64,000 nt of DNA from contig JBEKKX010000003.1 in the NCBI GenBank assembly GCA_050010515.1, forward strand, positions 1-64,000, in the 5' to 3' direction. The notes beneath the pieces were generated by a model. That model was not told where the DNA came from and did not search any database. It saw only the letters and a list, made by a program, of their open reading frames with translations. Numbering within the stretch: position 1 is the first letter of the stretch; each line of letters starts with the position of its first letter. The DNA comes from Candidatus Bathyarchaeia archaeon (GTDB lineage Archaea > Thermoproteota > Bathyarchaeia > Bathyarchaeales > Bathycorpusculaceae). The translations under genes and the position numbers were made by a program. This document shows positions 1 through 55,102 of the stretch, in pieces.

Positions 1-849
1 TTCCATTCCCCCCTAAGAATAAAATAATCATTGAAGAAAGATAGGCGAGGGCTTTAGCCGAGCCGTCCACTTAACACCATAATTCATGAATAGTTGCATA
101 GTTAACATACACATCATGTGCGTGTGCAACACAAGCAAAAGATGAGTAACGACCCAATTCAGTTAAACCATTAATTACCAACCAACTACTAACTAACGAA
201 CTAATAACTAACGAATAATAAATCAATAATAATAATAAAATAAGGGGGTACACACACACGCATAATGTGTATGTAAAGTATGATTACCCATTATTTACGA
301 TTCACAAACGCTTAAATCAAGATATGGGCTTTATAACCGCATATGAGTGCGAGCAATGGAGCAAACAAGGAAACAGCCCAGATTCACTGCTATAAAGGCA
401 AACAACACCGAAAACAAAGGTTTCAGAAAAAATTTGAGCATGATATAAGAGACACATAAGCGCAAAAAACCTTGCGTTTGATTTTGGACACGGCGTTTTA
501 ATCAGATGATTAATTAACCAATTTCAAAGGCGTTTCGGCACGGTTAACCAAGCCAATTAATACGCCGTTATCCCCTGTTATTTAGGTCACATAGGCGCAA
601 AAACGCTTTTTTTTACCCCATTTTCGCGTGGGGGATTGACAGCAATGCTTTCAATAGGGGGAGTGTTCTATAGCTTATTGGGATTAGTTAATAGGCTTAC
701 GGGTACGGGAATGTTCATGATGAGGTTTAAAATAGTTAAGGGCAAAATAGTAAAATGTAGTGCTCTTAATAGCCCTCAATGCCCATGCAAAGGTCACTAC
801 AAGACAACTTGTTTTCTACCAAACGATAAGGTCGAATTCACTTAAAAGG

Positions 850-1053
850 ATGGTTGAGACTGTGCCGACAGAAAGGTTTGAACCGATGAGTGAAGAACAA
901 AAACGATTAATAGCTGAATTTATTGAAACTCTTAAACTTGAATTGTCAAAAGAAGGAAAAGGCTCTCTTGAATCGTTTAGAACGATTTTAACGGTGAAAG
1001 GCGAACATTACACGGTCAAGATTGAACATTTAGAACCAAGACCTAAACCCTAA
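850..1053 (+). CDS. Small hypothetical protein (67 aa)
   Basis: Part of ORF 760..1053. ATG at 850 gives MVETVPTERFEPMSEEQKRL. Followed by a T-tract. Confidence 0.55.
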   Translation: MVETVPTERFEPMSEEQKRLIAEFIETLKLELSKEGKGSLESFRTILTVKGEHYTVKIEHLEPRPKP

Positions 1054-1203
1054 CCATACCTCTCTTTTTTTAGCAGTTTGGCAAAGCCTTAATCAACTGA
1101 TTAACTATTGGTCTTTTTTAATCAACTGATTAAACCAACCAACCACATAGACAGAAGATAAGTAAGTGCGGTGGTTTATTGCTTATAATAACTAACTTAG
1201 CTT

Positions 1204-1638
1204 TTATAATTTAATGCCCTCTTTATCTGGATATGACCGTGGACTAAAAGGGTATAGGAAAAAATTATCGTTCAATGGGTCAGTCTCAATTTTAAGGTGT
1301 TTAGCCATTGCCTTAAACAAGTCAAGAAGTTTCTGATTCTCCACAGTCAAATCTCGCGGAGAGTCTGCTAAGCAATATTCATAATATGCCTTAAAAGCCG
1401 ATAACACTTCTTTTGATTCAGAAAAAACAATAGGGATTTGATTTATTGCTTGAACAAATTCTTCTTTATTTTTAGAAAAGCGGTTTGCCATTAATTGTTG
1501 AAAAACTGCAAATTTCAATTTTCTAATCTCGTTAAGTTTGAAAGACCTATTTGAAATCCAAACACCAAGTAAACCTGACAACAAAGCTGAAACCAAAATC
1601 GAAAGTATAGTCCATCCAAATTCTTCTGAAACTACCAT
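1204..1638 (-). CDS. DUF6680-like protein with N-terminal TM helix
   Basis: TM segment, then R..K..VFQQLMANR...FVQAINQIPIVF...LLDLFKAMAKHL pattern recalled for DUF6680. Confidence 0.6.
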   Translation of the reverse strand: MVVSEEFGWTILSILVSALLSGLLGVWISNRSFKLNEIRKLKFAVFQQLMANRFSKNKEEFVQAINQIPIVFSESKEVLSAFKAYYEYCLADSPRDLTVENQKLLDLFKAMAKHLKIETDPLNDNFFLYPFSPRSYPDKEGIKL

Positions 1639-1747
1639 GTGGTGCTTTATGTCTCTTTACCTTATTATATTTGCCACTGGCTACGGACTTCTCCATTAAA
1701 GTTTAAAAGCATGTAGTAATACTTACGATATTAAGGTAGGTGAAAAA

Positions 1748-1828
1748 ATGGCTAAAGGTAAAGGTGGAAAACCAAGCACAACTGGCAAACCTTCAGGAAA
1801 AGGACGAGATAACAACCCACCAAAATAA
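1748..1828 (+). CDS. 26-aa G/K/P-rich micropeptide MAKGKGGKPSTTGKPSGKGRDNNPPK
   Basis: Strong RBS (AGGTGA) about 5 nt before the ATG. TATA-like TTTAAAA at about 1702. Too short for the ORF track. Confidence 0.55.
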   Translation: MAKGKGGKPSTTGKPSGKGRDNNPPK

Positions 1829-1914
1829 GTGATTCTGGGTTAAAGTCTTTTTTCTATCAGGTTCAAAAGTCTTAAATCTGGACAGAAGAGAATAGAGGAA
1901 CTGAGGCGATAAGA

Positions 1915-2205
1915 GTGAGCAATATTGATGGTGAAGAGTTAAAGAATCTTGTTAGTTCAACTATAGACAATATTGAAGCGGGATTAAAGGGGAAAAATAA
2001 AGAGTACGTCCTTAGTGGAAATATTAAGTTTGAGGTTGCTGTGGTAACCGCCAAGCAAGGTGAAGGCGGTTTAAAACTATACGTTGTTGGTGTTTCTGGA
2101 AAGACAAGCAAGGAAAGTGTTTCAAAAATAACTTTTGAGGTCATAGACAAGGGAAAACAGAAGGGGAGTATGTTTGTTATATCACATAATCCTAATGTAC
2201 CTTAA
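1915..2205 (+). CDS. Trypco2-like (trypsin-co-occurring domain) small protein
   Basis: N-terminal helix, then IKFEVAVV...GGLKLYVVG...VSKITFEV beta-strand pattern. Confidence 0.5.
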   Translation: MSNIDGEELKNLVSSTIDNIEAGLKGKNKEYVLSGNIKFEVAVVTAKQGEGGLKLYVVGVSGKTSKESVSKITFEVIDKGKQKGSMFVISHNPNVP

Positions 2206-2397
2206 ATTAACTCCCGTACCTCTTTAGTTTTTTGGCTTTTTTGGCAGTTTGGCTTTTTTTAATCCATCGATTAATTATTTGGGCTTGATTTCTCTGTTTG
2301 ATTTAGTGGATTCAGGATTCATAAAGCGTAATACGCTTTTTAAAGTTAGGTTACTTGGAATAACGGTAACCAGCCGCCGCGCTATTAGGAAAAACAT

Positions 2398-3084
2398 ATG
2401 AACACAACCACAAAAATAATCGGATTAGTTTCAATCATTGCAATAATTTTATCGGTTGTTGCAATCGGAATAAATTTAAACACAACCAACCAAACAAACC
2501 AATTAAACGCTCAATTGAACCAACAAGCAACACAAAAAATAATTACAAATACATCTTTTGACGGTTTTGGAAACGATAAAACCATTGACTTTACTTTTAG
2601 CATATTTGTAGTTAATATTAATAGCATAACTGTTAACGGTAACGGTGTTTCATTTACAAATATGAACGGATTTGACGGGACATCAGGCGGAATAAACTAT
2701 AATTGGGTAAGCGGTCACATATACACTATAACGATTAACGAAACAGATAACAACGGAATCACACAAACTTTAACCGAAAAATTAACCGCTCCACCAACGG
2801 CAACACCACAACCAACACCACAAATATTAAGTGCTACATTTGGAGCAACGGGAACAGCTATAGGCGATTATTACATTACAATACAGCTTTCAAGCGGAAC
2901 ATATATTTCAAGTTATACAGTTAACGGTGTTATACATACATGCGAGTATTCTGACTCACAATCGCAATTTCATTTATGCCTTAATAGCCCGTGGATAAGC
3001 GGAGAATCTTACAGTATAACAGTAACCGTTAGCGTAGGAATTTATGCACAACAAACACCAACATACACGGCAACCGCTCCGTAA
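2398..3084 (+). CDS. Membrane-anchored T/N-rich surface protein with two beta-rich domains
   Basis: N-terminal hydrophobic anchor, short coiled coil, and a PPTATPQPTP linker between two similar beta-rich halves (W.SG..Y.IT motif twice). Confidence 0.7.
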   Translation: MNTTTKIIGLVSIIAIILSVVAIGINLNTTNQTNQLNAQLNQQATQKIITNTSFDGFGNDKTIDFTFSIFVVNINSITVNGNGVSFTNMNGFDGTSGGINYNWVSGHIYTITINETDNNGITQTLTEKLTAPPTATPQPTPQILSATFGATGTAIGDYYITIQLSSGTYISSYTVNGVIHTCEYSDSQSQFHLCLNSPWISGESYSITVTVSVGIYAQQTPTYTATAP

Positions 3085-3216
3085 TGAGAACAAACTTTTT
3101 TCCTTGTGTTGTTTTTAAGCAGTTGATTAATTATTAAAGAATGTTTAATGGGAGAGATTGATAAGGCTAAAAAGTTAGGGCTATTTTATGGATTTGACGA
3201 TTAAGCTAAGTCGTAA

Positions 3217-3672
3217 CTATTGGTTTACAGTTCTTTTAACAGTTATAGGAGACTTAATGAGTTCGAGGGTTCTCATTGCTTCCGCGCAATCTGAAACGAC
3301 TGTTGTCTCATCATAGTCAAATGAGTTCATACATTGCGTACAACAGACAGGTTGATGATAGTATATCAAAGCACATTCGGCACGTTCTCTATCTGGGCTT
3401 GCAATTTTTGCGAATGCAAAACATAACTGTTGACCATCGGGTACATTGTTACGCCATAAGCCCCATTTTTCATGTTTATCAATTCTGTCATCTACATCCT
3501 TTGTTTCGCCAATATAGATTAGCTTTGTTAGGTCTACTGTGTTAGTAGGTGCATTGTACTTACATGAGTAAACCAAGTATATTCCTGAATCTGCTGGGAT
3601 AGAATCCTTCTTTTCCTCTCTCCAATATCCCTCAAAAGTCAGGTTAATTGTTTTTGCTACCATCTTTTTCAC
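3217..3672 (-). CDS. GIY-YIG nuclease family protein
   Basis: SGIYLVY...LIYIGET..V..RI..H, and AE.ALI...QP. Confidence 0.85.
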   Translation of the reverse strand: MKKMVAKTINLTFEGYWREEKKDSIPADSGIYLVYSCKYNAPTNTVDLTKLIYIGETKDVDDRIDKHEKWGLWRNNVPDGQQLCFAFAKIASPDRERAECALIYYHQPVCCTQCMNSFDYDETTVVSDCAEAMRTLELIKSPITVKRTVNQ

Positions 3673-3795
3673 CTCTATTCTATAGTGCCTATTATCTTTA
3701 GGTTTACATTTAAAGTTTCAAAATAGCCTCTGCCTACTCAAGTTTTTAGCAGTTTAGCAAGTCTTAAATTTGCACAGCGAAGAAATAGCCTAAAC

Positions 3796-4098
3796 ATGAG
3801 AGAAAAAACCATTAAGTTCTTAGACAAACCCTTGAAACTTGGCGAAAAAAGTCATACACAAGAACCGAAACCGAAAGAAGATAAAACCGAGTCAAAAGAG
3901 GAAATAAAAGCGAGAGTAAGAGCCAAAAACTACGATACAGAAACTTTGATAGAAAAATATGTTTCAACGGGGATGATGTACAACAACCTTGTTGAAGAAT
4001 ATAACGACCTTGATAATGCCGTGGATAACATTAAGCAAAAATTGATGCAATTGCTCGAAAAGAACGAAAATTTGTTAAAAGCACAAACTAACCCATAA
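3796..4098 (+). CDS. Hypothetical coiled-coil protein
   Basis: 100-aa ORF, charged, C-terminal heptad pattern. TATA-like CTTAAAT upstream. Confidence 0.6.
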   Translation: MREKTIKFLDKPLKLGEKSHTQEPKPKEDKTESKEEIKARVRAKNYDTETLIEKYVSTGMMYNNLVEEYNDLDNAVDNIKQKLMQLLEKNENLLKAQTNP

Positions 4099-4248
4099 TC
4101 CTCTTTGCTTTTTTCCTGACTCCCTTTTGAACCTCTAACTTTCACTTAGTTTCTGTTTGGCTTTCGTTATGAGGTCGAATTCACTTAGTTAGCTTCTTTT
4201 TTTTGCACGTTTATCAAATAATTAATCTATTGATTAAAAAAAGTGAAT

Positions 4249-4962
4249 TTAGATAGCAAAAACATAAGTATTGTTATCAATAGATATTTCGACACGGTCG
4301 TCTGCAATTAATGGCCACCATGTAGTTTGTATATACCTTAGAAACTTATTGTTCGTTAAAGATGTTTTAAGCCAGTCCTCAGGTTCATCTATAATGACTC
4401 TTGTGCCGACTTGTGAGAGAGGAGAAAGCGAGGGTGAATATCTTGATAACCATTCCTTAGCTTCTGAGCCTTCAAACTCCCATAGATCACCAAGTCTTCT
4501 TACACCGATCCTATAAATGTTATCCTCCCTCAGGGTATCGTAAACAATAGTCCTGTTTTTTGACGCACCTACGAATACAAATTTTCCTTGTCCTCGTGCA
4601 CCTAAAGCTTCTTTCTTTTGCCTTCTGAATGCAAGCCCTTGGAAACGCCCCCATCTTTCTTCTTCAGGGAGATCATCGTCATATAGTTCTTCAGGCAATA
4701 TGTTACCAGTTAGACCTACAGTCCCATGATCCTCCATGAGAAACATTTCTCGACCATTAACGTCTTTTATGAGTGAAAATGCCATCTTCCAGTTATCGCC
4801 AACTTTTGCATCCCAGGCGTTCTGTATTGCGTCTTTCTGCACGGCATGTGAAAGGTCATCAACATTTTGGTAGTACTCATCAAGGATATTATCAATCAAC
4901 GGTTCCCATGACACAGGCGTCTTTTTAGGTTTATTGCACTCAAGGGCTGATTCAAAACTCAT
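4249..4962 (-). CDS. GHKL (HSP90-like) ATPase, probably C-terminally truncated
   Basis: N-box DAIQNAWDA, EDHGTVG, GARGQGK and GTRVII. Ends immediately after the ATPase domain. Confidence 0.7.
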   Translation of the reverse strand: MSFESALECNKPKKTPVSWEPLIDNILDEYYQNVDDLSHAVQKDAIQNAWDAKVGDNWKMAFSLIKDVNGREMFLMEDHGTVGLTGNILPEELYDDDLPEEERWGRFQGLAFRRQKKEALGARGQGKFVFVGASKNRTIVYDTLREDNIYRIGVRRLGDLWEFEGSEAKEWLSRYSPSLSPLSQVGTRVIIDEPEDWLKTSLTNNKFLRYIQTTWWPLIADDRVEISIDNNTYVFAI

Positions 4963-5462
4963 CCGAATACCTCACTGTTATGTGAATTTGAATGATTGGA
5001 CTTCAAAAACTCTAACGTGTTTTCTAAAAAGTAGTTGACTGATTCGTCAGAGGGCCTATTACGGTTTGATCTTAGAATTGATTCAACTTTCTTTCTCCGT
5101 TCTTCGTCTGACAAATTAGGGACTTGTAAAGCATCAACAAACGGTTTATAAATTGAGCATTTTTGTCCTTTTGTGTTTGTAATTCTACCGACCACTGCCC
5201 AACCTCTTGTCTTCATTCTGTTTCTCTTTTTCCTTTGTCTCCTTTGCTTCGAGTGGCTTGTGGTTAGATTCGTCGTTACCCTTTCAAAGGGCTCCGTAAC
5301 CGTTTCCTCCGCTTCAGCAAAATGTAGGACAAGGGACTGACCCTCAATTTTGGCATCTACCATTCTTGCGGGCAGTAGATGTTTGTCTCTAATCGATTGC
5401 TCGATTTCAGAGAGCGGAATTTTTACAACGGTCACTATTTCTTCAGGCATACAACCTACCAT
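4959..5462 (-). CDS. Hypothetical basic protein, translationally coupled to the GHKL ATPase
   Basis: 167-aa ORF with an ATGA overlap onto the next gene. R/K-rich central segment. Confidence 0.7.
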   Translation of the reverse strand: MVGCMPEEIVTVVKIPLSEIEQSIRDKHLLPARMVDAKIEGQSLVLHFAEAEETVTEPFERVTTNLTTSHSKQRRQRKKRNRMKTRGWAVVGRITNTKGQKCSIYKPFVDALQVPNLSDEERRKKVESILRSNRNRPSDESVNYFLENTLEFLKSNHSNSHNSEVFG

Positions 5463-5662
5463 ATGATTAGTTATAATAGATATAAGCGCTTATAAGCTTT
5501 GTTATAGTAGGCTATGCTAGCTTTAACTATTTATATATCCTCTATAAGCCAAGCGTTTACGTTTAGCTGCATAAATGATTTTTGCTCGATGAATGCGAAC
5601 TCATTGTTGTAAAACATTACAACTAAGCTGGAATAGAATATCGGGTAGATCGAGGAAAATAA

Positions 5663-6012
5663 ATGGATGACTCGTTTGATAGTATAGATAGATGGAATAC
5701 TTGACCAAAATTCGTTACTTTAAAGAAATATATTGAGTGGAATTTTTCAAAACATAATTGGCGCTTTAGCGAAGCTCAATTAAATGCTATTAGAGTGATC
5801 TGTCTCGGAGCGACCAAGGAATGGCTTGAACAGAAAAAAGAAGACAAGGCTAACATTAGCTAACTCTTAGATGAGCTTGCGAAATCATACGAAAAAGCGC
5901 TTGGTGAATTAAAGAAGTACGGGTATTAAGATATTGAGCCGTATCAATTAGATGAGGCCATGGATTTACTCAACTACTCAGTGAGAAGAAAGAGACCGTC
6001 AGTTATGTTATA
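5663..6012 (+). pseudogene. Decayed ORF of unknown family
   Basis: GAGG plus ATG at 5663, protein-like reading (MDDSFDSIDRWNT*PKFVTLKKYIEWNF...LLDELAKSYEKALGELKKYGY*) broken by several in-frame stops. Confidence 0.35.
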
Positions 6013-6085
6013 ATAGACCTGAACGAAGAATTAAGCACAGAATCCAAAAAGAAGACCGTAGAAAAGTAATTTCAGTAATTTGGAG

Positions 6086-7081
6086 CTAAAGAAACTTCAA
6101 CTCTTTACCAATTGCCTCTAACCGTTTTCTGTAGCTCAAATAAGCGCTAAGATATGCATCGTTTTTCGCTTTCAACTCCTTAGTATTGCCATTAGCATTT
6201 GCCAATACCTTCTCTTCTAAGTGTTTAAGGGAAAATCCTGAGATAGCATCTAAAGCAATGAGGGGCATTCCCAGTATAGTTTGGCATTCCTTAACTAAAG
6301 AATCATACGAGGAAGGCATTATAGCAGTTTCATAAATCTTTGTCAGGACACCGTACTTCTTGAGATTAGTATATATTCCCAGTTGACCCTGCGAACTACT
6401 AAAACGGGAATTGTTTGCAGTTGGATAGCTATTTTGACCTTATTTGCAAGGTCACTTGGATATTCAAGCCCCATTTTTTACTTCAACGCCAAAGCGAATG
6501 CCACCTTTCTCAGCAATAAAATCAATGTCTCCACCTTCAACCTTGTTACCTTCAAATTCCGAAACATCTTCCTTTAATATTTCGTAACCTAAAGACTTGA
6601 AGCCTTCACGCCAGAGATACTGCGCGTGGAAACCTGCGGAACCAGCTAACTCACTTACAAATTCTGAGAGCTCCAGCTTTTTCTTCATTACTCCTAAAAT
6701 ATCACCATATTCGGTGGACTTGACCTTATAAAACACATTAGGCGTTCCTTGACTAATGGACCTGCGACCCGGCAACGCTGTTCTATAAAGCTGAAAGCCA
6801 TTATTGTATGCCTTGCCTTGCTCTAAACGTTTTATGGCATAATCTGTGACAGTATGATAATACTCTCTTTCTAGTCTGTATCTAAACTCATTTCTAAAAA
6901 CTACTTGCTCCTTGTCCAATATCTTCATAATGCTCTTTTCTGCATTAACATCGTAAATAGAAACTGTCCAATCACATGACTTACACTTGTACTCATTTCC
7001 CACAAGAACCATTTCATTCTTGCATTTCGGGCATACCACTTCGGGCAGTACAAATCCCTCAAACGCTAATTGTTTTATCAA
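6086..7081 (-). pseudogene. Zn-ribbon plus PD-(D/E)XK nuclease, frameshifted
   Basis: CPKC/CKSC, then DIDFIAEK...GVEVKN. After about 6470 the reading continues in another frame (LEYPSDLANKVKIAIQLQTIPVLVVRR), and after a second shift near 6378 it joins ORF 6086..6319. Confidence 0.7.
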
Positions 7082-7449
7082 GCACTAAAAGCTTGTCTAA
7101 CTTTTGAACATATTCATAGCCAGAGCACAAATAATACATGTCAAAATGACAAGGGCAATTTTTGCGCTGTTAAACGCTGGCGAGCCTTACGTACACGAAT
7201 GAGGACACTGAAAGTTTAGTGTTTAGGGGTTGCGGGTGATTTTGAGGGGGCTTTCAATGTGGCGTTGTGCTGCATCGGCTGTTTCCATGTTTAGCTTGCG
7301 ATAAATCCTGATTTTTCCGCATGGTTCGCCAGCTTTTCAAGCAACTTCCCGAAAAACGCGCTCAGACACAAAACCCTCCGCCGAAACGGAAGAAAACGGC
7401 TAAAATTCAGGCTCAGCACACCGTTTTGGAGACCCGCTGCCAGCGCCCA

Positions 7450-7700
7450 AAGAAAAAGTCGCAACCAAAAACAAGATTCAAACCCCAAACCAAAAAAACA
7501 ACCCAAAGCAATCCCTTCCAAAAACTGCTGACCTATAGACCTACCCTACTATTTGTTGAAAAAATTTTGCCACAAAAAGCCACATCTGAAAGTCGCAACT
7601 TTCCACCACGCAAAAGTCGCAACTTAAAAATATCCGAAAAAACCAAACCCAAAAACAGCCAACGCCAAACAAAACCAAAACTTCACGGAGAATTTTTCTT
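7450..7700 (+). repeat. Non-coding A/C-skewed element with AAAGTCGCAACTT motifs (copy 1)
   Basis: Motifs at 7455-7465 (partial), 7589-7601 and 7613-7625. Inverted homolog at about 37610-37710. Confidence 0.6.
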
Positions 7701-7764
7701 AAAAAAGTAAGAAGAGTTTTATTGCACTATGTTCCAATATTAGGCATTAAAGGAACATTAAACT

Positions 7765-8277
7765 ATGTTATCGACTATTGATGATGCAACCTTAATAAAA
7801 GTAGCTATGGCGTTAGGTGACGAAGAAGCCGTTAGACTAATTGAATTCCTAAAAGGCATAGAAGAAATAACGGACGACGAAATAGCGAACAAAACAGGCA
7901 TCCGCCTAAACTCAGTCCGCAAAATCCTCTACAAACTTTACGATCATTCGCTTGTAAGCCTCAGAAGAACACGGGATCCAAAAACAGGCTGGTTTATTTT
8001 TCACTGGAAACTTCAACCAGACCAGTTGGAAGGGTTCATTTTAAGCCAAAAACGCAGAGTTCTTGAGAAGCTGAATGTTAGGTTGGAATATGAAAAGAAC
8101 CATGACTTCTACTATTGCGGCAGCCAAGAATGCAAACGAGTGCCTTTTGAAGAGGCTGTTGAACTAGTTTTCCACTGTTCCATCTGTAGCAAACCACTGG
8201 TGCATTTTGCAAACGAAAAAATGATAAGTAAATTATCCGAGAAAGTTGATTTGTTAAGGAAGGAACTCGGTGAGTAA
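7765..8277 (+). CDS. tfe: Transcription factor E (TFE, TFIIE-alpha homolog)
   Basis: wHTH (TDDEIANKTGIRLNSVRKILYKL), RD.KTGWFIFHW, Zn ribbon C..C/CSIC. Confidence 0.95.
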   Translation: MLSTIDDATLIKVAMALGDEEAVRLIEFLKGIEEITDDEIANKTGIRLNSVRKILYKLYDHSLVSLRRTRDPKTGWFIFHWKLQPDQLEGFILSQKRRVLEKLNVRLEYEKNHDFYYCGSQECKRVPFEEAVELVFHCSICSKPLVHFANEKMISKLSEKVDLLRKELGE

Positions 8278-8791
8278 AGAGCTTCCTTCAAGGGAGCAAG
8301 CAATCGAGCTTCTACGCAAACACAATTGTCCACCTAAAGTTATTAATCACTGTGAAGAGGTCGCAAAACTTGCTTTAGAAATCGCAAGTAAACTTGAAAA
8401 AAAAGGTATAAAAGTTGACTTAAAACTCGTTGAAGCCGGCGCTCTTTTACATGATATTGGCCGTTCAAAAAGCCACGCTGTTGACCATGGTGTTGTCGGT
8501 GCTGAGATAGCTGAATTAGAAGGTTTGCCAGAAGCTGCGGTTAGGATAATTAGGAGGCATGTGGGAGGCGGAATCACGGCTCAAGAAGCTGAGAAGTTTG
8601 GTTGGCCAAAAGATATTTATGAGCCACTCACTTTGGAGGAGAAAATTGTTTCATACGCCGACAAACTGATTGATCAGTCAAAAAGAGTCCCGATTGACTT
8701 GGAGATTAAGCGGCTTCGAGTCGAGCACAGGGATGCTGCAGAAAGAGTTAGAAAGCTCCATGAAGAAATAACCCGTCAACTGGGCGATTAA
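8270..8791 (+). CDS. HD-superfamily phosphohydrolase (TIGR00295-like)
   Basis: H...GALLHDIGR, HGVVG, HVGGG, EEKIVSYAD. Usual neighbour of tfe. Confidence 0.9.
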   Translation: MSKELPSREQAIELLRKHNCPPKVINHCEEVAKLALEIASKLEKKGIKVDLKLVEAGALLHDIGRSKSHAVDHGVVGAEIAELEGLPEAAVRIIRRHVGGGITAQEAEKFGWPKDIYEPLTLEEKIVSYADKLIDQSKRVPIDLEIKRLRVEHRDAAERVRKLHEEITRQLGD

Positions 8792-8793
8792 AA

Positions 8794-9576
8794 ATGGCGA
8801 CCTTAACATTGCTAGTTAAAGCTTCCAATGCTGGGCAACTAAAAAAGATAGATGACTTGTTGAAATCTGAGTTTGAGAACTTGGATTTAGACGTAAAAGT
8901 TTTAGGCAATCCAGTTAACAGGTGGGTTCAAGTTTCCCTTTCAGGAGAAGACGAAGTCATAGCTACAAGCTATATCAACAAGAACATAGGCACCTGCCCC
9001 ATAAACATAAAAAACGTAGACAAATTTTCGGTTTTAAAGGGATACATTTCCAAAGTTGACACTGACAAACAAGAATTAAAGGTAGATGTAGGCATTTTTG
9101 AGCCAAAAATAATCCAAGCAACCGTTCCTTTAGCTTATTTGCAAGCCCAACTTGCGGATGGCAGAAAAGTTGATTTAAAGAAAATCTCAGAAGTTTATGG
9201 TTTCCATGCGAATTTGCCATTAAGTATCAAAGCAATTTGCTTAAACGGTGAAGAAGACAAGCTGTTGCAAGCGGAATTATCGACGGCTCAAATCGAAAAA
9301 ATCCGTTTATGGCAGCAGTCTCTTTTGGACAGACTAATTGTTTTGGGTTCATCTATCGGCGAGATTGAGAAGGTGCTTGAACGGACTAGGCTAAACAGGG
9401 ATGTTATTGGCACGGAGGCGTTAGGATTGTTTGAGCACGCTTTAACCTGCAAACTTGGAACTGACGCGACTGGTTTGATTCCGAAAATCGGCAGGTACAT
9501 GAAAAATTCAACGTTTGTTATTTTTAGTCCTAAGAAAGTGAGGGGATTTATCGGTGAATCGTCATTAAACTTATAA
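8794..9576 (+). CDS. DUF2110 family protein
   Basis: WVQVSLSGEDE, LGLFEH..CKLGTDA.GLIP.IG. Conserved tfe-HD-DUF2110 context. Confidence 0.8.
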   Translation: MATLTLLVKASNAGQLKKIDDLLKSEFENLDLDVKVLGNPVNRWVQVSLSGEDEVIATSYINKNIGTCPINIKNVDKFSVLKGYISKVDTDKQELKVDVGIFEPKIIQATVPLAYLQAQLADGRKVDLKKISEVYGFHANLPLSIKAICLNGEEDKLLQAELSTAQIEKIRLWQQSLLDRLIVLGSSIGEIEKVLERTRLNRDVIGTEALGLFEHALTCKLGTDATGLIPKIGRYMKNSTFVIFSPKKVRGFIGESSLNL

Positions 9577-9668
9577 ATCGTTTACATTATTAGTTATAAC
9601 AATCTATTATCCGAATAAGGATAATAGAAGAGAAGAGAAGAGAAGAGAAGAGAGGGGGAGAAGTTCAC

Positions 9669-9830
9669 ATGAGTCAAGGCGACGACAGGGACAGAAGAAA
9701 ATATAGAATTGATATAGGGGCTTATGGCAGCATAGGAATTGAAGCGCCCACTAAGGAAGAGTGTTTGGAGCTGTTCAAGGAAGTCACTAGAACTAGACGT
9801 GACTCAAAGATAGACGAAGCAATAAGATAA
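9669..9830 (+). CDS. Small hypothetical protein (53 aa)
   Basis: MSQGDDRDRRKYRIDIGAYGSIGIEAPTKEECLELFKEV..., preceded by GGGGGAG and an (AGAAG)n tract. Confidence 0.55.
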   Translation: MSQGDDRDRRKYRIDIGAYGSIGIEAPTKEECLELFKEVTRTRRDSKIDEAIR

Positions 9831-55002: not shown

Positions 55003-55102
55003 TGGCGGGCCCGCTGGGATTTGAACCCAGGATTTTCGGCTAACCCCCGCTTTGAGAAGCGTCCGGAGGCCGACGCCTTAATCCGTACTAGACTACGGGC
55101 CC
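55003..55102 (-). tRNA. tRNA-Arg(CCG) with a 21-nt canonical 37/38 intron and encoded CCA
   Basis: GGGCCCG acceptor, TCGGC-CTCCGG^A-GCCGA anticodon arm, intron ACGCTTCTCAAAGCGGGGGTT forming a bulge-helix-bulge, CTGGG-TTCAAAT-CCCAG T arm. Confidence 0.95.

Follow-up and report, generated by a model that had tools for sequence, protein, structure and literature searches.

The late promoters of phage P2 and its satellite P4 that respond to Ogr and delta contain a dyad-symmetric upstream element common to helper and satellite, through which the genes of the satellite follow the helper's programme. In Cluster A mycobacteriophages, a monomer binds the stoperators, which are asymmetric and point along the direction of transcription. 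They are described as repressor-type sites (PMC9283540). In T4-type phages, promoter-early stem-loops (PeSLs) are described as composite terminator/promoter motifs that stand at the borders of non-essential genes, with modular shuffling by homologous recombination (PMC2839356, PMC4122927). Here we analyze a 16-base palindrome, named PAL, which we compare with these systems and with the attC sites of integrons. It recurs at the start of a 64,000-nucleotide stretch of DNA (the window) from a Candidatus Bathyarchaeia archaeon (GenBank assembly GCA_050010515.1, contig JBEKKX010000003.1, positions 1 to 64,000 of the forward strand), in one arm of an integrated element that we call E0.

The evidence inclines us, by a modest degree, to read PAL as a putative sequence-specific regulator-binding site of one lineage of archaeal viruses and small elements, carried in mobile terminator/promoter modules that would double as recombination hinges; for the protein that binds PAL we have a candidate only. 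A dimeric regulator, encoded by the virus, the element or the host, would bind PAL, and the bound regulator would set or couple how the flanked units are transcribed, in the role of an activator or operator upstream of them or of a roadblock behind terminators. General recombination between co-resident elements would use the PAL module as a hinge because the same module of ~16-45 nt stands at many gene borders, and a cassette-like mosaic would result. The original prediction, made from the letters of the window, had proposed a gene-cassette system with site-specific recombination at the palindrome and had named an operator of a provirus or plasmid repressor as the alternative. The cassette picture is right as a description, in that unrelated, probably separately transcribed small genes form a mosaic parted by a conserved element, whereas an integron-like mechanism is not supported. 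The operator alternative fits better than a capture system, with 38 PAL copies in a 112-kb virus, often 6-14 nt from a TATA box.

The palindrome in E0, related elements and a 112-kb virus

The repeated 16-base palindrome is a real, non-random feature. Exact matches to TTAATC-N4-GATTAA occur in the window at positions 498, 1089, 1118, 2259 and 4222 (n = 5 in 64 kb), compared with 0 matches in 100 dinucleotide-preserving shuffles of the window. Six copies within 3.8 kb had been counted originally; five are exact, and the sixth, at 3115, has one mismatch (TTAAGC...GATTAA). An exact-match scan agrees with the earlier remark on the rest of the window, as the remaining 60 kb contain no further exact copy. 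The whole assembly (2,379,893 bases in 66 contigs) holds six exact copies, five in the window and one at position 57412 of contig C2. A better consensus for PAL is TTAATCAACTGATTAA, which at up to one mismatch has 11 genome copies at 5 loci (Table 1) and none when the first 10 contigs are shuffled (3 replicates). Among the six window copies, four N4 centres occur. The asymmetric conservation beyond the palindrome was reproduced, with 94% identity between 1066-1082 and 2237-2253 and 27 of 29 identical positions (93% over 29 nt) between 2253-2281 and the reverse complement of 4215-4243, and the GCAGTTTRGC box reported to occur alone was located, without a palindrome, at 3742-3758. The suggestion that site 4222 is reversed did not hold, since its left flank (a T8 run and GCACGTTTATC) gives it the same polarity as the other copies.

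The window starts at base 1 of its contig (C3), and the reverse complement of C3 1-36 equals C2 1-36, a 36-mer unique in the genome that makes a head-to-head overlap. A 202-kb metagenome contig (L192) is 100% identical to window positions 9672..1 and continues into C2 1..2817, and a 9.6-kb Logan contig of metagenome run X3 extends 1,981 nt past window position 1. Because the overlap and both contigs span the junction, the sequence that precedes the window is C2 in reverse. There, C2:273-6745 is a row of co-oriented genes, and beyond it a 383-aa tyrosine recombinase gene sits on the abutting contig, to the left of position 1, where the original prediction had supposed that a recombinase could lie. 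A relative of this integrase (L019 13225-14595) matches integrase PHROGs at 1.5e-13, and the closest named relative was found in a Bathyarchaeota metagenome-assembled genome; a search for relatives of the 383-aa integrase found a single locus (L006, 66% identity), which carries no PAL.

A 12-bp direct repeat, TATCTATTGATA, flanks this DNA. The open reading frame (ORF) 4962-4275 on the minus strand continues in frame at C2:8313 into ORF C2:8351-9466, and an intact 669-aa orthologue of the split gene exists in G067 (L195 1092-3101), 83% identical over the first part. The direct repeat and the intact G067 gene lead to the conclusion that window 1-4274 is one arm of an integrated element of ~12.5 kb, E0, that splits a host gene. 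No tRNA was found near E0 as an integration target. As reconstructed, the attachment site carries a pair of 11-bp inverted arms, TTAGATAGCAA and TTGCTATCTAA, with 15 nt between each arm and the core. E0 carries 8 PAL copies in total and no ATPase gene. Near-identical DNA occurs in 20 metagenome runs of peat, wetland and soil, which belong to 19 studies (six of the runs possibly the source sample).

PAL is confined to mobile DNA in this host, namely E0 and two elements with a 411-aa integrase on C2 and C5, plus one C8 site. The integrase-411 element on C2 is bounded by an 8-bp repeat, AAATATGT, and was defined against 14 empty sites in relatives. PAL also recurs in about 15 related small elements of the genus. 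With exact arms, a match occurs in 24 of 61 relatives, with 0-3 copies each compared with 6 in this genome (controls 0-2). At up to one mismatch the 16-mer was found in 40 of 120 same-genus genomes, with about 95 match rows listed, compared with 17 reversed-control hits. Clear clusters are present in G084, G086, G087, G090, G108, G116, G004, G138 and others, and they adjoin homologues of the integrase, ATPase and core genes. Isolated single sites (about 25 fetched loci) have no marker genes nearby and occur at about the control level, and in 185,579 species genomes the exact 16-mer gave mostly single chance matches in unrelated bacteria.

The comparison set comprises 15 elements, and the site statistics given below come from 18 element loci with 62 copies (perfect or with one mismatch). 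A P-loop ATPase of ~370 aa, with a weak HerA/DUF87 match, or its acidic C-terminal tail is present in 13 of the 15 elements, a scaffold-like coiled-coil protein in 9, and the 411-aa tyrosine recombinase family likewise in 9 (in L026 it passes the cut-off of Pfam); no complete element is without a tyrosine recombinase. The elements L020, L022 and L028 share the conserved core genes of E0 (C2:2071-6745), whereas the seven genes of the window arm have no homologue there, with the N-terminus of the surface protein, which has a counterpart in L179, as the one exception. The earlier expectation that gene content should vary between relatives was borne out, as sister elements carry quite different genes in the accessory arm, with cargo that includes AbiJ, DUF4365, cyclophilin, GT2 and GOLD domains. 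As a separate observation, the smallest elements also carry the acidic tail of the ATPase, ending ...GDGLMSEGDIMFPEE, at their edge as an ORF of its own (71-113 aa).

In viral contigs the 16-mer likewise gave mostly single chance matches; the exception is G144 (IMGVR_UViG_3300035660_000003), the genome of a head-tailed virus, of 112,412 bp, with direct terminal repeats and a completeness rating of 100%. It contains 38 PAL copies (35 with exact arms) compared with 0 control hits. Of the centres, 24 read AATT and 13 read AACT/AGTT. The largest group of copies (17 of 38) stands between two successive genes of the same strand, and the stretch from 30 to 60 kb, with few ORFs of at least 110 aa, contains 25 of the 38. 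G144 encodes a major head protein, a large terminase, a Neck1/tail-completion protein, an MCM-type helicase, PolB and a ligase, in addition to a RadA/UvsX-like recombinase and a Cas4-like protein. It has homologues of a 202-aa protein of E0 (E 1e-25), of the scaffold-like family of the small elements (E 1.8e-12 by phmmer; a pattern-based viral-contig search gave none), of the Neck1-like family (E 1e-36) and of the ATPase family (E 8.9e-15).

The small elements have no major capsid protein or terminase by the searches made, and the combination of shared genes without capsid or terminase resembles a helper-satellite relation, which we infer from the shared genes. It is possible, if doubtful, that the small PAL elements including E0 are satellites of G144-like Bathyarchaeia viruses, and that PAL is a shared regulatory code by which the satellites would sense the helper or be switched on by it, as well as a hinge for trading accessory and defence genes. 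No CRISPR-spacer-like short matches were found between G144 and this genome. A literature search on satellites of archaeal viruses turned up one paper on archaea, which concerns spindle-shaped viruses.

A motif common to a virus and small elements could also be a packaging signal, a partition (centromere-like) site or a replication iteron used by helper and satellites alike. The ATPase, or a homologue of its C-terminal tail, that 13 of 15 elements share would suit such a role, as would the PAL pairs in long non-coding regions, 29-93 nt apart. The copies are, however, dispersed at gene borders, up to 38 per genome, and not placed at one locus, and E0 has its 8 PAL copies while lacking the ATPase gene, so that we regard a role in DNA handling as very unlikely.

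Predicted terminator/promoter modules and the exchange of their flanks

Judged from their bases, the predicted PAL modules have an oligo-T terminator and a GCNGTTTRGC box on one side and often a TATA box 6-14 nt away on the other. In 138 kb of element DNA there are 34 perfect PAL sites, 28 with one mismatch and 24 with two. The copies avoid coding sequence: 55 of 62 lie outside ORFs, and most of the 7 cases inside are in short doubtful ORFs. Single changes fall at arm position 5 in 24 of 28 copies, mostly from T to A, and the centre is AACT/AGTT in 38 of 62 copies in related elements. Base-pairing is kept in none of the two-mismatch copies (0 of 24 compensated). That the sequence rather than the pairing is conserved points to recognition by a protein, and the half-site centres, 10 bp apart on one face of the helix, would suit a dimer or a pair of dimers.

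A hairpin with a 6-bp stem and a 4-nt loop can be drawn for PAL, with T-runs adjacent, and it could represent an intrinsic terminator stem or a cruciform. The lack of compensation argues against this, as do three other results: the RNA folds of the six window PAL regions are no better than shuffles (z -0.98 to +1.6), the T-run stands before the stem and not after it, and window 1-5000 has no match in Rfam. The RNA motif was therefore rejected as a candidate, and a hairpin of either kind is in our view extremely improbable.

The promoter context of PAL was read against the host TATA consensus (TTAAAT, CTTAAA), whose frequency is highest 41-50 nt ahead of start codons. Of the 62 copies, 13 (21%) have a TATA-like box within 40 nt compared with 5.9% of random positions, 8 of them at 8-14 nt, and a T5+ run lies within 35 nt of 38 of the 62 compared with 26% of random positions. 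In G144 a TATA-like heptamer is found 5-30 nt from 11 of 38 copies (8.1% for random positions), 8 of them at 6-14 nt. PAL pairs 29-93 nt apart precede the first operon gene in many elements, in long non-coding regions, and the palindrome at C2:157 overlaps the TTTAAATAGGG box ahead of a helix-turn-helix (HTH) gene. In the window, TATA-like boxes occur 30-50 nt before the starts at 1748, 1915, 2398, 3672 (minus strand) and 3796; a TATA-like box at about 2340 stands ahead of gene 2398-3084. Since the arm genes, whose orientations along the arm are + - + + + - +, each have their own TATA-like box 30-50 nt upstream, they would be separate transcription units.

These associations raise the possibility that PAL is itself a promoter part, recognized by either the basal machinery or a virus-specific initiation factor and marking a temporal class of viral or satellite promoters. 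The 8 element copies and 8 G144 copies at 6-14 nt from a TATA-like box fit this notion, and so does the concentration of 25 of the 38 G144 copies at 30-60 kb. We nevertheless judge it quite improbable: about half of all copies have no TATA-like box nearby, window copies stand between convergent gene ends, and a genome-wide scan of the kind proposed with the original prediction, for a plain transcription-factor site in host promoters, found no host promoter that uses PAL.

A different arrangement is seen on the terminator side. At 15 of 66 sites a T-run and box lie 2-25 nt upstream of PAL, mostly behind the 3' end of a gene on the transcribed strand, and in copies with the terminator box the centre AGTT follows the T-run side in 8 of 10, with mixed orientation beside TATA boxes. 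PAL could on this evidence be a stoperator-like roadblock or insulator, where a bound repressor stalls polymerase over the upstream oligo-T, thereby isolating genes and silencing the element. The position of four of the six window copies between convergent genes and the many dispersed intergenic copies per genome are consistent with such a role. On the other hand, the strand transcribed towards PAL in G144 is A-rich, not T-rich, in many copies, the terminator box is not behind a gene end at L024 10850 and L031 10140, and no repressor was identified; a roadblock as the main function of PAL is therefore unlikely. Because the geometry is non-uniform, we make no choice among activator, operator and roadblock as the way in which a regulator bound to PAL would act.

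The second part of our preferred reading, the modules as hinges, draws on their flanks. In an ungapped comparison of 22 site pairs that resemble each other on one flank, the likeness stops no more than 3 nt past PAL in 15; in at least 2 of these 15 one-sided pairs it returns beyond an indel or short divergent stretch. One flank family with the terminator box, F1 (15 of 66 sites), meets at least 6 different partner families across PAL. The module at window position 2259 is a mosaic, with a left flank like that at L024 10021 and a right flank like that at L020 17500, and the left flank of 4222 is common to L031 10140 and L020 17500 while its right flank is not. Three elements (L002, L025 and L027) occupy the same chromosomal site with related integrases and unrelated cargo, and their shared blocks end at a T-run/box just beyond a palindrome. 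The 1065-1133 module of the window has, in G118 and next to other genes, a nearly identical counterpart of ~110 nt (L179 3972-4016, in opposite orientation); L022 16287-16369, upstream of the P-loop ATPase gene there, matches window 484-566 with 87% identity; and window 3759-3807, with the promoter and first codons, recurs in L003, L020 and L029, with metagenome contigs of extra depth and loose ends at this place. The position of PAL relative to the DUF6680 gene varies, being downstream here while a degenerate copy stands upstream in the G019 homologues.

Metagenome runs were examined as assembled contigs. In runs X3 and X9, contigs of low depth (6.65 compared with 61.5 in X3; 3.5 compared with 6.5 in X9) join position 1081 to 3113 with three letters between. 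This form without 1082-3112 misses three palindromes and three gene units, and its ends are 6-7 nt to the left of copies 1089 and 3115, outside their cores. Breaks in the N4 core, as a cassette system had been expected to leave, are thus not what the variant displays. Another joint in X3, 2241 to 3762, fits on one side over only 24 nt and was treated as coming from another element.

Flank modules that re-assort around PAL, together with the variant lacking 1082-3112, could also be produced by a dedicated site-specific recombination that uses PAL as its core site to excise, insert or invert cassettes, integron-like and without attC. The fixed inverted arms around an asymmetric centre conserved in 38 of 62 copies would be in keeping with this, as would the tyrosine recombinase in every complete element. 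Moreover, the attachment core of E0, TTATC-AATA-GATA, resembles PAL although it is no PAL copy, and the nearest PAL, at 4222, shares ATCTATTGAT (10 nt) with it on the opposite strand. Against this stands the finding that the attachment sites of both integrase families, TATCTATTGATA and AAATATGT, are not PAL, which speaks against cassette capture or shuffling at PAL by these enzymes; the direct repeats at the two ends of an element are these other sequences, and PAL copies are internal to the elements. The searches made found no second recombinase in the elements. Arms of 6-7 bp are short for a recombinase core, four centres among the six window copies would not be tolerated by strand exchange, and the variant breakpoints fall 6-7 nt outside two copies. 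The changing position of PAL at the DUF6680 gene and the 38 promoter-adjacent copies in the 112-kb virus are also unlike a cassette array. It is because of the conserved asymmetric centre that we keep dedicated recombination among the readings, as an improbable one.

Candidate binding proteins and features of the arm

Within the conserved core, a single protein is predicted to bind DNA, a ribbon-helix-helix (RHH)-like protein (C2:2071-2442; alignment A1), whose family is present in 8-9 of the 15 elements. In 6-7 of 9 elements its gene is preceded by PAL at a distance of 83-211 nt, the gene of E0 and that of L022 being without such a copy. All genomes with strong RHH hits (9 of 9) have at least two PAL copies, an association that any core gene would show. 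Atlas feature scores of 0.81-0.84 for the protein serve as leads only, and its structural model has no Foldseek hit at E<=0.001. Since neither the 112-kb virus nor the smallest elements have this family, the RHH-like protein is a weak candidate. The PAL binder could equally well be a host factor or some other viral protein that is shared. Further candidates are the zinc-ribbon proteins C2:5505-6107 and C2:6107-6745 and the small DNA-binding proteins of G144.

Several results weigh against PAL as a regulator-binding site in mobile modules, or against the RHH-like protein as its partner, and we gather them here with the resumed similarity in some one-sided pairs mentioned above. The fold assignment has a Pfam RHH_3 match in 1 of 9 members, a PDB match at E 0.39 and a model pLDDT of 68. 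No RHH-like protein was found in G144 (E<=1) or in the small integrase-411 elements, and ahead of the RHH-like gene PAL and the TATA box are 25-140 nt apart, a spacing that is not fixed. An HTH protein (C2:273-467) was rejected as the binder, as its weak hits (E 5.6e-5 to 9.3e-4) are in 9 other genomes of the 120 in the genus, none with a PAL cluster. The four window copies between convergent gene ends stand directly behind a T-run and GCNGTTTRGC box, and TATA-like boxes are missing from 29 of 62 element copies (within 120 nt) and 23 of 38 copies in G144 (within 60 nt). Finally, a conserved asymmetric centre (AACT in 38 of 62) is expected of a crossover region and less of a plain spacer.

Upstream of the RHH-like gene, three elements contain a second repeated motif, CGTGGTTGGTTTAGT, and a conserved TTAACGGGGCTTGATT; in L028 the latter lies directly behind a palindrome copy.

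The features of the arm and of the related loci are collected in Table 1. The gene labels of the original prediction fared unevenly: DUF6680 is secure, the Trypco2 match is marginal (24.1 bits compared with a cut-off of 24.2) and the GIY-YIG match falls below its cut-off. The GIY-YIG-like gene has a 99% identical copy on the metagenome contig L192.

Table 1. Coordinates of the E0 arm, PAL copies and related features (window positions unless a contig or locus is given)
Feature	Position	Strand	Remarks
Accessory (variable) arm of E0	1-4274		rest of E0 is C2:37-8300, read leftwards from window position 1
PAL copy TTAATCAGATGATTAA	498-513		inside ~850-nt non-coding start of window
Small gene, 67 aa	850-1053	+	no known family
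Module: T7 run, box GCAGTTTGGC, PAL 1089-1104, T6 run, PAL 1118-1133	1065-1133	+	between two convergent gene ends
DUF6680 gene, 144 aa	1204-1638	-	Pfam E 1.2e-16
Trypco2-like gene, 96 aa	1915-2205	+	marginal match; TATA-like box at about 1872 upstream
Module: T-runs with TTTGGC repeats, then PAL 2259-2274	2226-2274	+	behind gene 1915-2205
Membrane-anchored surface-type protein, 228 aa	2398-3084	+	N-terminus resembles 376-aa protein in L179
T6 run, degenerate box, PAL 3115-3130	3095-3130	+	one mismatch (TTAAGC); right-hand side of the 1081 to 3113 joint
Weak GIY-YIG-like gene, 151 aa	3217-3672	-	Pfam 19.5 bits, below cut-off 22.6
Box GCAGTTTAGC then directly AAGTCTTAAATTTGC	3742-3771	+	TATA-like, ~30 nt before ATG 3796; no intact palindrome
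Coiled-coil gene, 100 aa	3796-4098	+
T8 run, box GCACGTTTATC, PAL 4222-4237 (TTAATCTATTGATTAA)	4194-4237	+	38 nt inside right end of E0
Right attachment site	4249-4286		11-bp arm TTAGATAGCAA 4249-4259 and 12-bp core TATCAATAGATA 4275-4286
Direct repeat TATCTATTGATA, 12 bp, flanking E0	4275-4286 (as TATCAATAGATA) and C2:8301-8312 (reverse complement)
Split host gene, N-terminal part	4275-4962	-	frame continues at C2:8313-9466
Tyrosine recombinase, 383 aa	C2:7070-8221		Pfam Phage_integrase 18.2 bits, below cut-off
TTAATCAACTGATTAA copies, up to one mismatch	C2:64, 157, 55484, 57412, 57482
TTAATCAACTGATTAA copies, up to one mismatch	C3 (window contig): 498, 1089, 1118, 3115
TTAATCAACTGATTAA copies, up to one mismatch	C5:46480; C8:29465
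CGTGGTTGGTTTAGT/TTAACGGGGCTTGATT regions	C2:1770-2070; L022 9757-10057; L028 5455-5757
Second element, ~5 kb, 411-aa tyrosine recombinase	C2:53427-58557 (L002 3428-8557)		inserted exactly at Kae1 start codon
Third element, same kind as C2 integrase-411 element	C5 (L003)
ATPase homologue	C15:29997-31094
Stand-alone ATPase-tail ORFs	L002 8151-8492; L003 1258-1473; L027 8837-9070; L029 5242-5472

Window 1-849 and C2:1-272 together form ~1.1 kb without convincing genes and with three palindrome copies. This region contains an imperfect 30-nt inverted repeat rich in CACA (97-126 / 253-282), with G/C runs at the contig junction, and may be a control or replication region. A C-rich, CACA-rich stretch behind paired PAL copies in L002 7540-7800 resembles it. 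Elsewhere in the arm, a 19-nt direct repeat, ATRAGGTCGAATTCACTTA, is present at 826-844 and 4169-4187 (95% identical), 3.3 kb apart.

On the host side, the split 669-aa gene has an N-terminal GHKL-ATPase-like motif, seen by eye (Pfam gave no match), and a HEPN-domain gene is located nearby at C2:10436-11710; the neighbourhood of the two may be a defence island. Further into the window, a gene for TFE is preceded by an A/C-rich low-complexity stretch at 7321-7710. Metagenome contigs have many variants, joints and loose ends in this stretch, and the depth in run X3 rises from ~60 to ~200 from 7477 on, which probably reflects many related strains sharing TFE. ARAGORN called a 100-nt tRNA-like gene with a four-letter anticodon loop (ccgg) at 55003-55102 on the minus strand, which may be an intron-bearing archaeal tRNA.

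Comparison with known systems

Almost nothing is known of gene regulation and genome plasticity in the viruses and mobile elements of Bathyarchaeia, whose hosts are abundant archaea of sediment and peat. One 16-bp site common to a virus and small elements offers a handle for finding the regulator that would bind it, and a means of linking viruses to their hosts and possible satellites in metagenomes. PAL modules would also explain the shuffling between elements of accessory genes with defence-type domains (DUF6680, Trypco2-like, AbiJ, DUF4365).

The likeness to integrons lies in unrelated small genes that stand between imperfectly conserved palindromic elements and vary among relatives. There is no IntI/attI/Pc platform, and the only recombinase of E0 lies ~11 kb from the outer end of the arm, bordering its own attachment site. 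The genes here have mixed orientation and their own TATA-like boxes, in contrast to the co-oriented and mostly promoterless cassettes of integrons. PAL is 16 bp long and conserved in sequence, whereas attC sites are 57-141 bp long and conserved in structure.

With the dyad-symmetric element of the P2 and P4 late promoters PAL shares its symmetry and its occurrence in a virus and small elements alike, the helper-satellite relation here being suggested by shared genes. It differs in that the spacing from PAL to the TATA box varies. The stoperators, as described for Cluster A mycobacteriophages, are similar to PAL in that many copies of one short site are distributed across the intergenic regions of a virus genome, beyond the early promoters; PAL differs from them in being palindromic, with only a weak polarity.

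The closest correspondence is with the PeSLs, as these are described for T4-type phages. Both are short motifs, composite terminator/promoter ones in PeSLs and putatively so in PAL modules, repeated at the borders of small non-essential genes in variable regions, and in this locus the arm genes are variable while the core is conserved; in G144 the region concerned is 30-60 kb. In both, insertions, deletions and replacements end at the motif, which forms the exchange point between unrelated sequences. Changes between relatives of E0 do end at the motif, as judged by an ungapped comparison of flanks and joint contigs of low depth. A further trait of the PeSL kind is the formation of mini-circles when neighbouring motifs exchange. 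There are differences as well. PAL modules would use oligo-T terminators with BRE/TATA promoters, a make-up that follows from their archaeal hosts, in place of the sigma-70 promoters and stem-loops of PeSLs. The constant piece here is a 16-bp palindrome without an RNA fold, like a separate protein-binding site, and PAL is common to a large virus and small integrated elements. If our reading is correct, PAL would extend to archaea the idea of the regulatory cassette as a hinge for recombination, so far described for T4-like phages.

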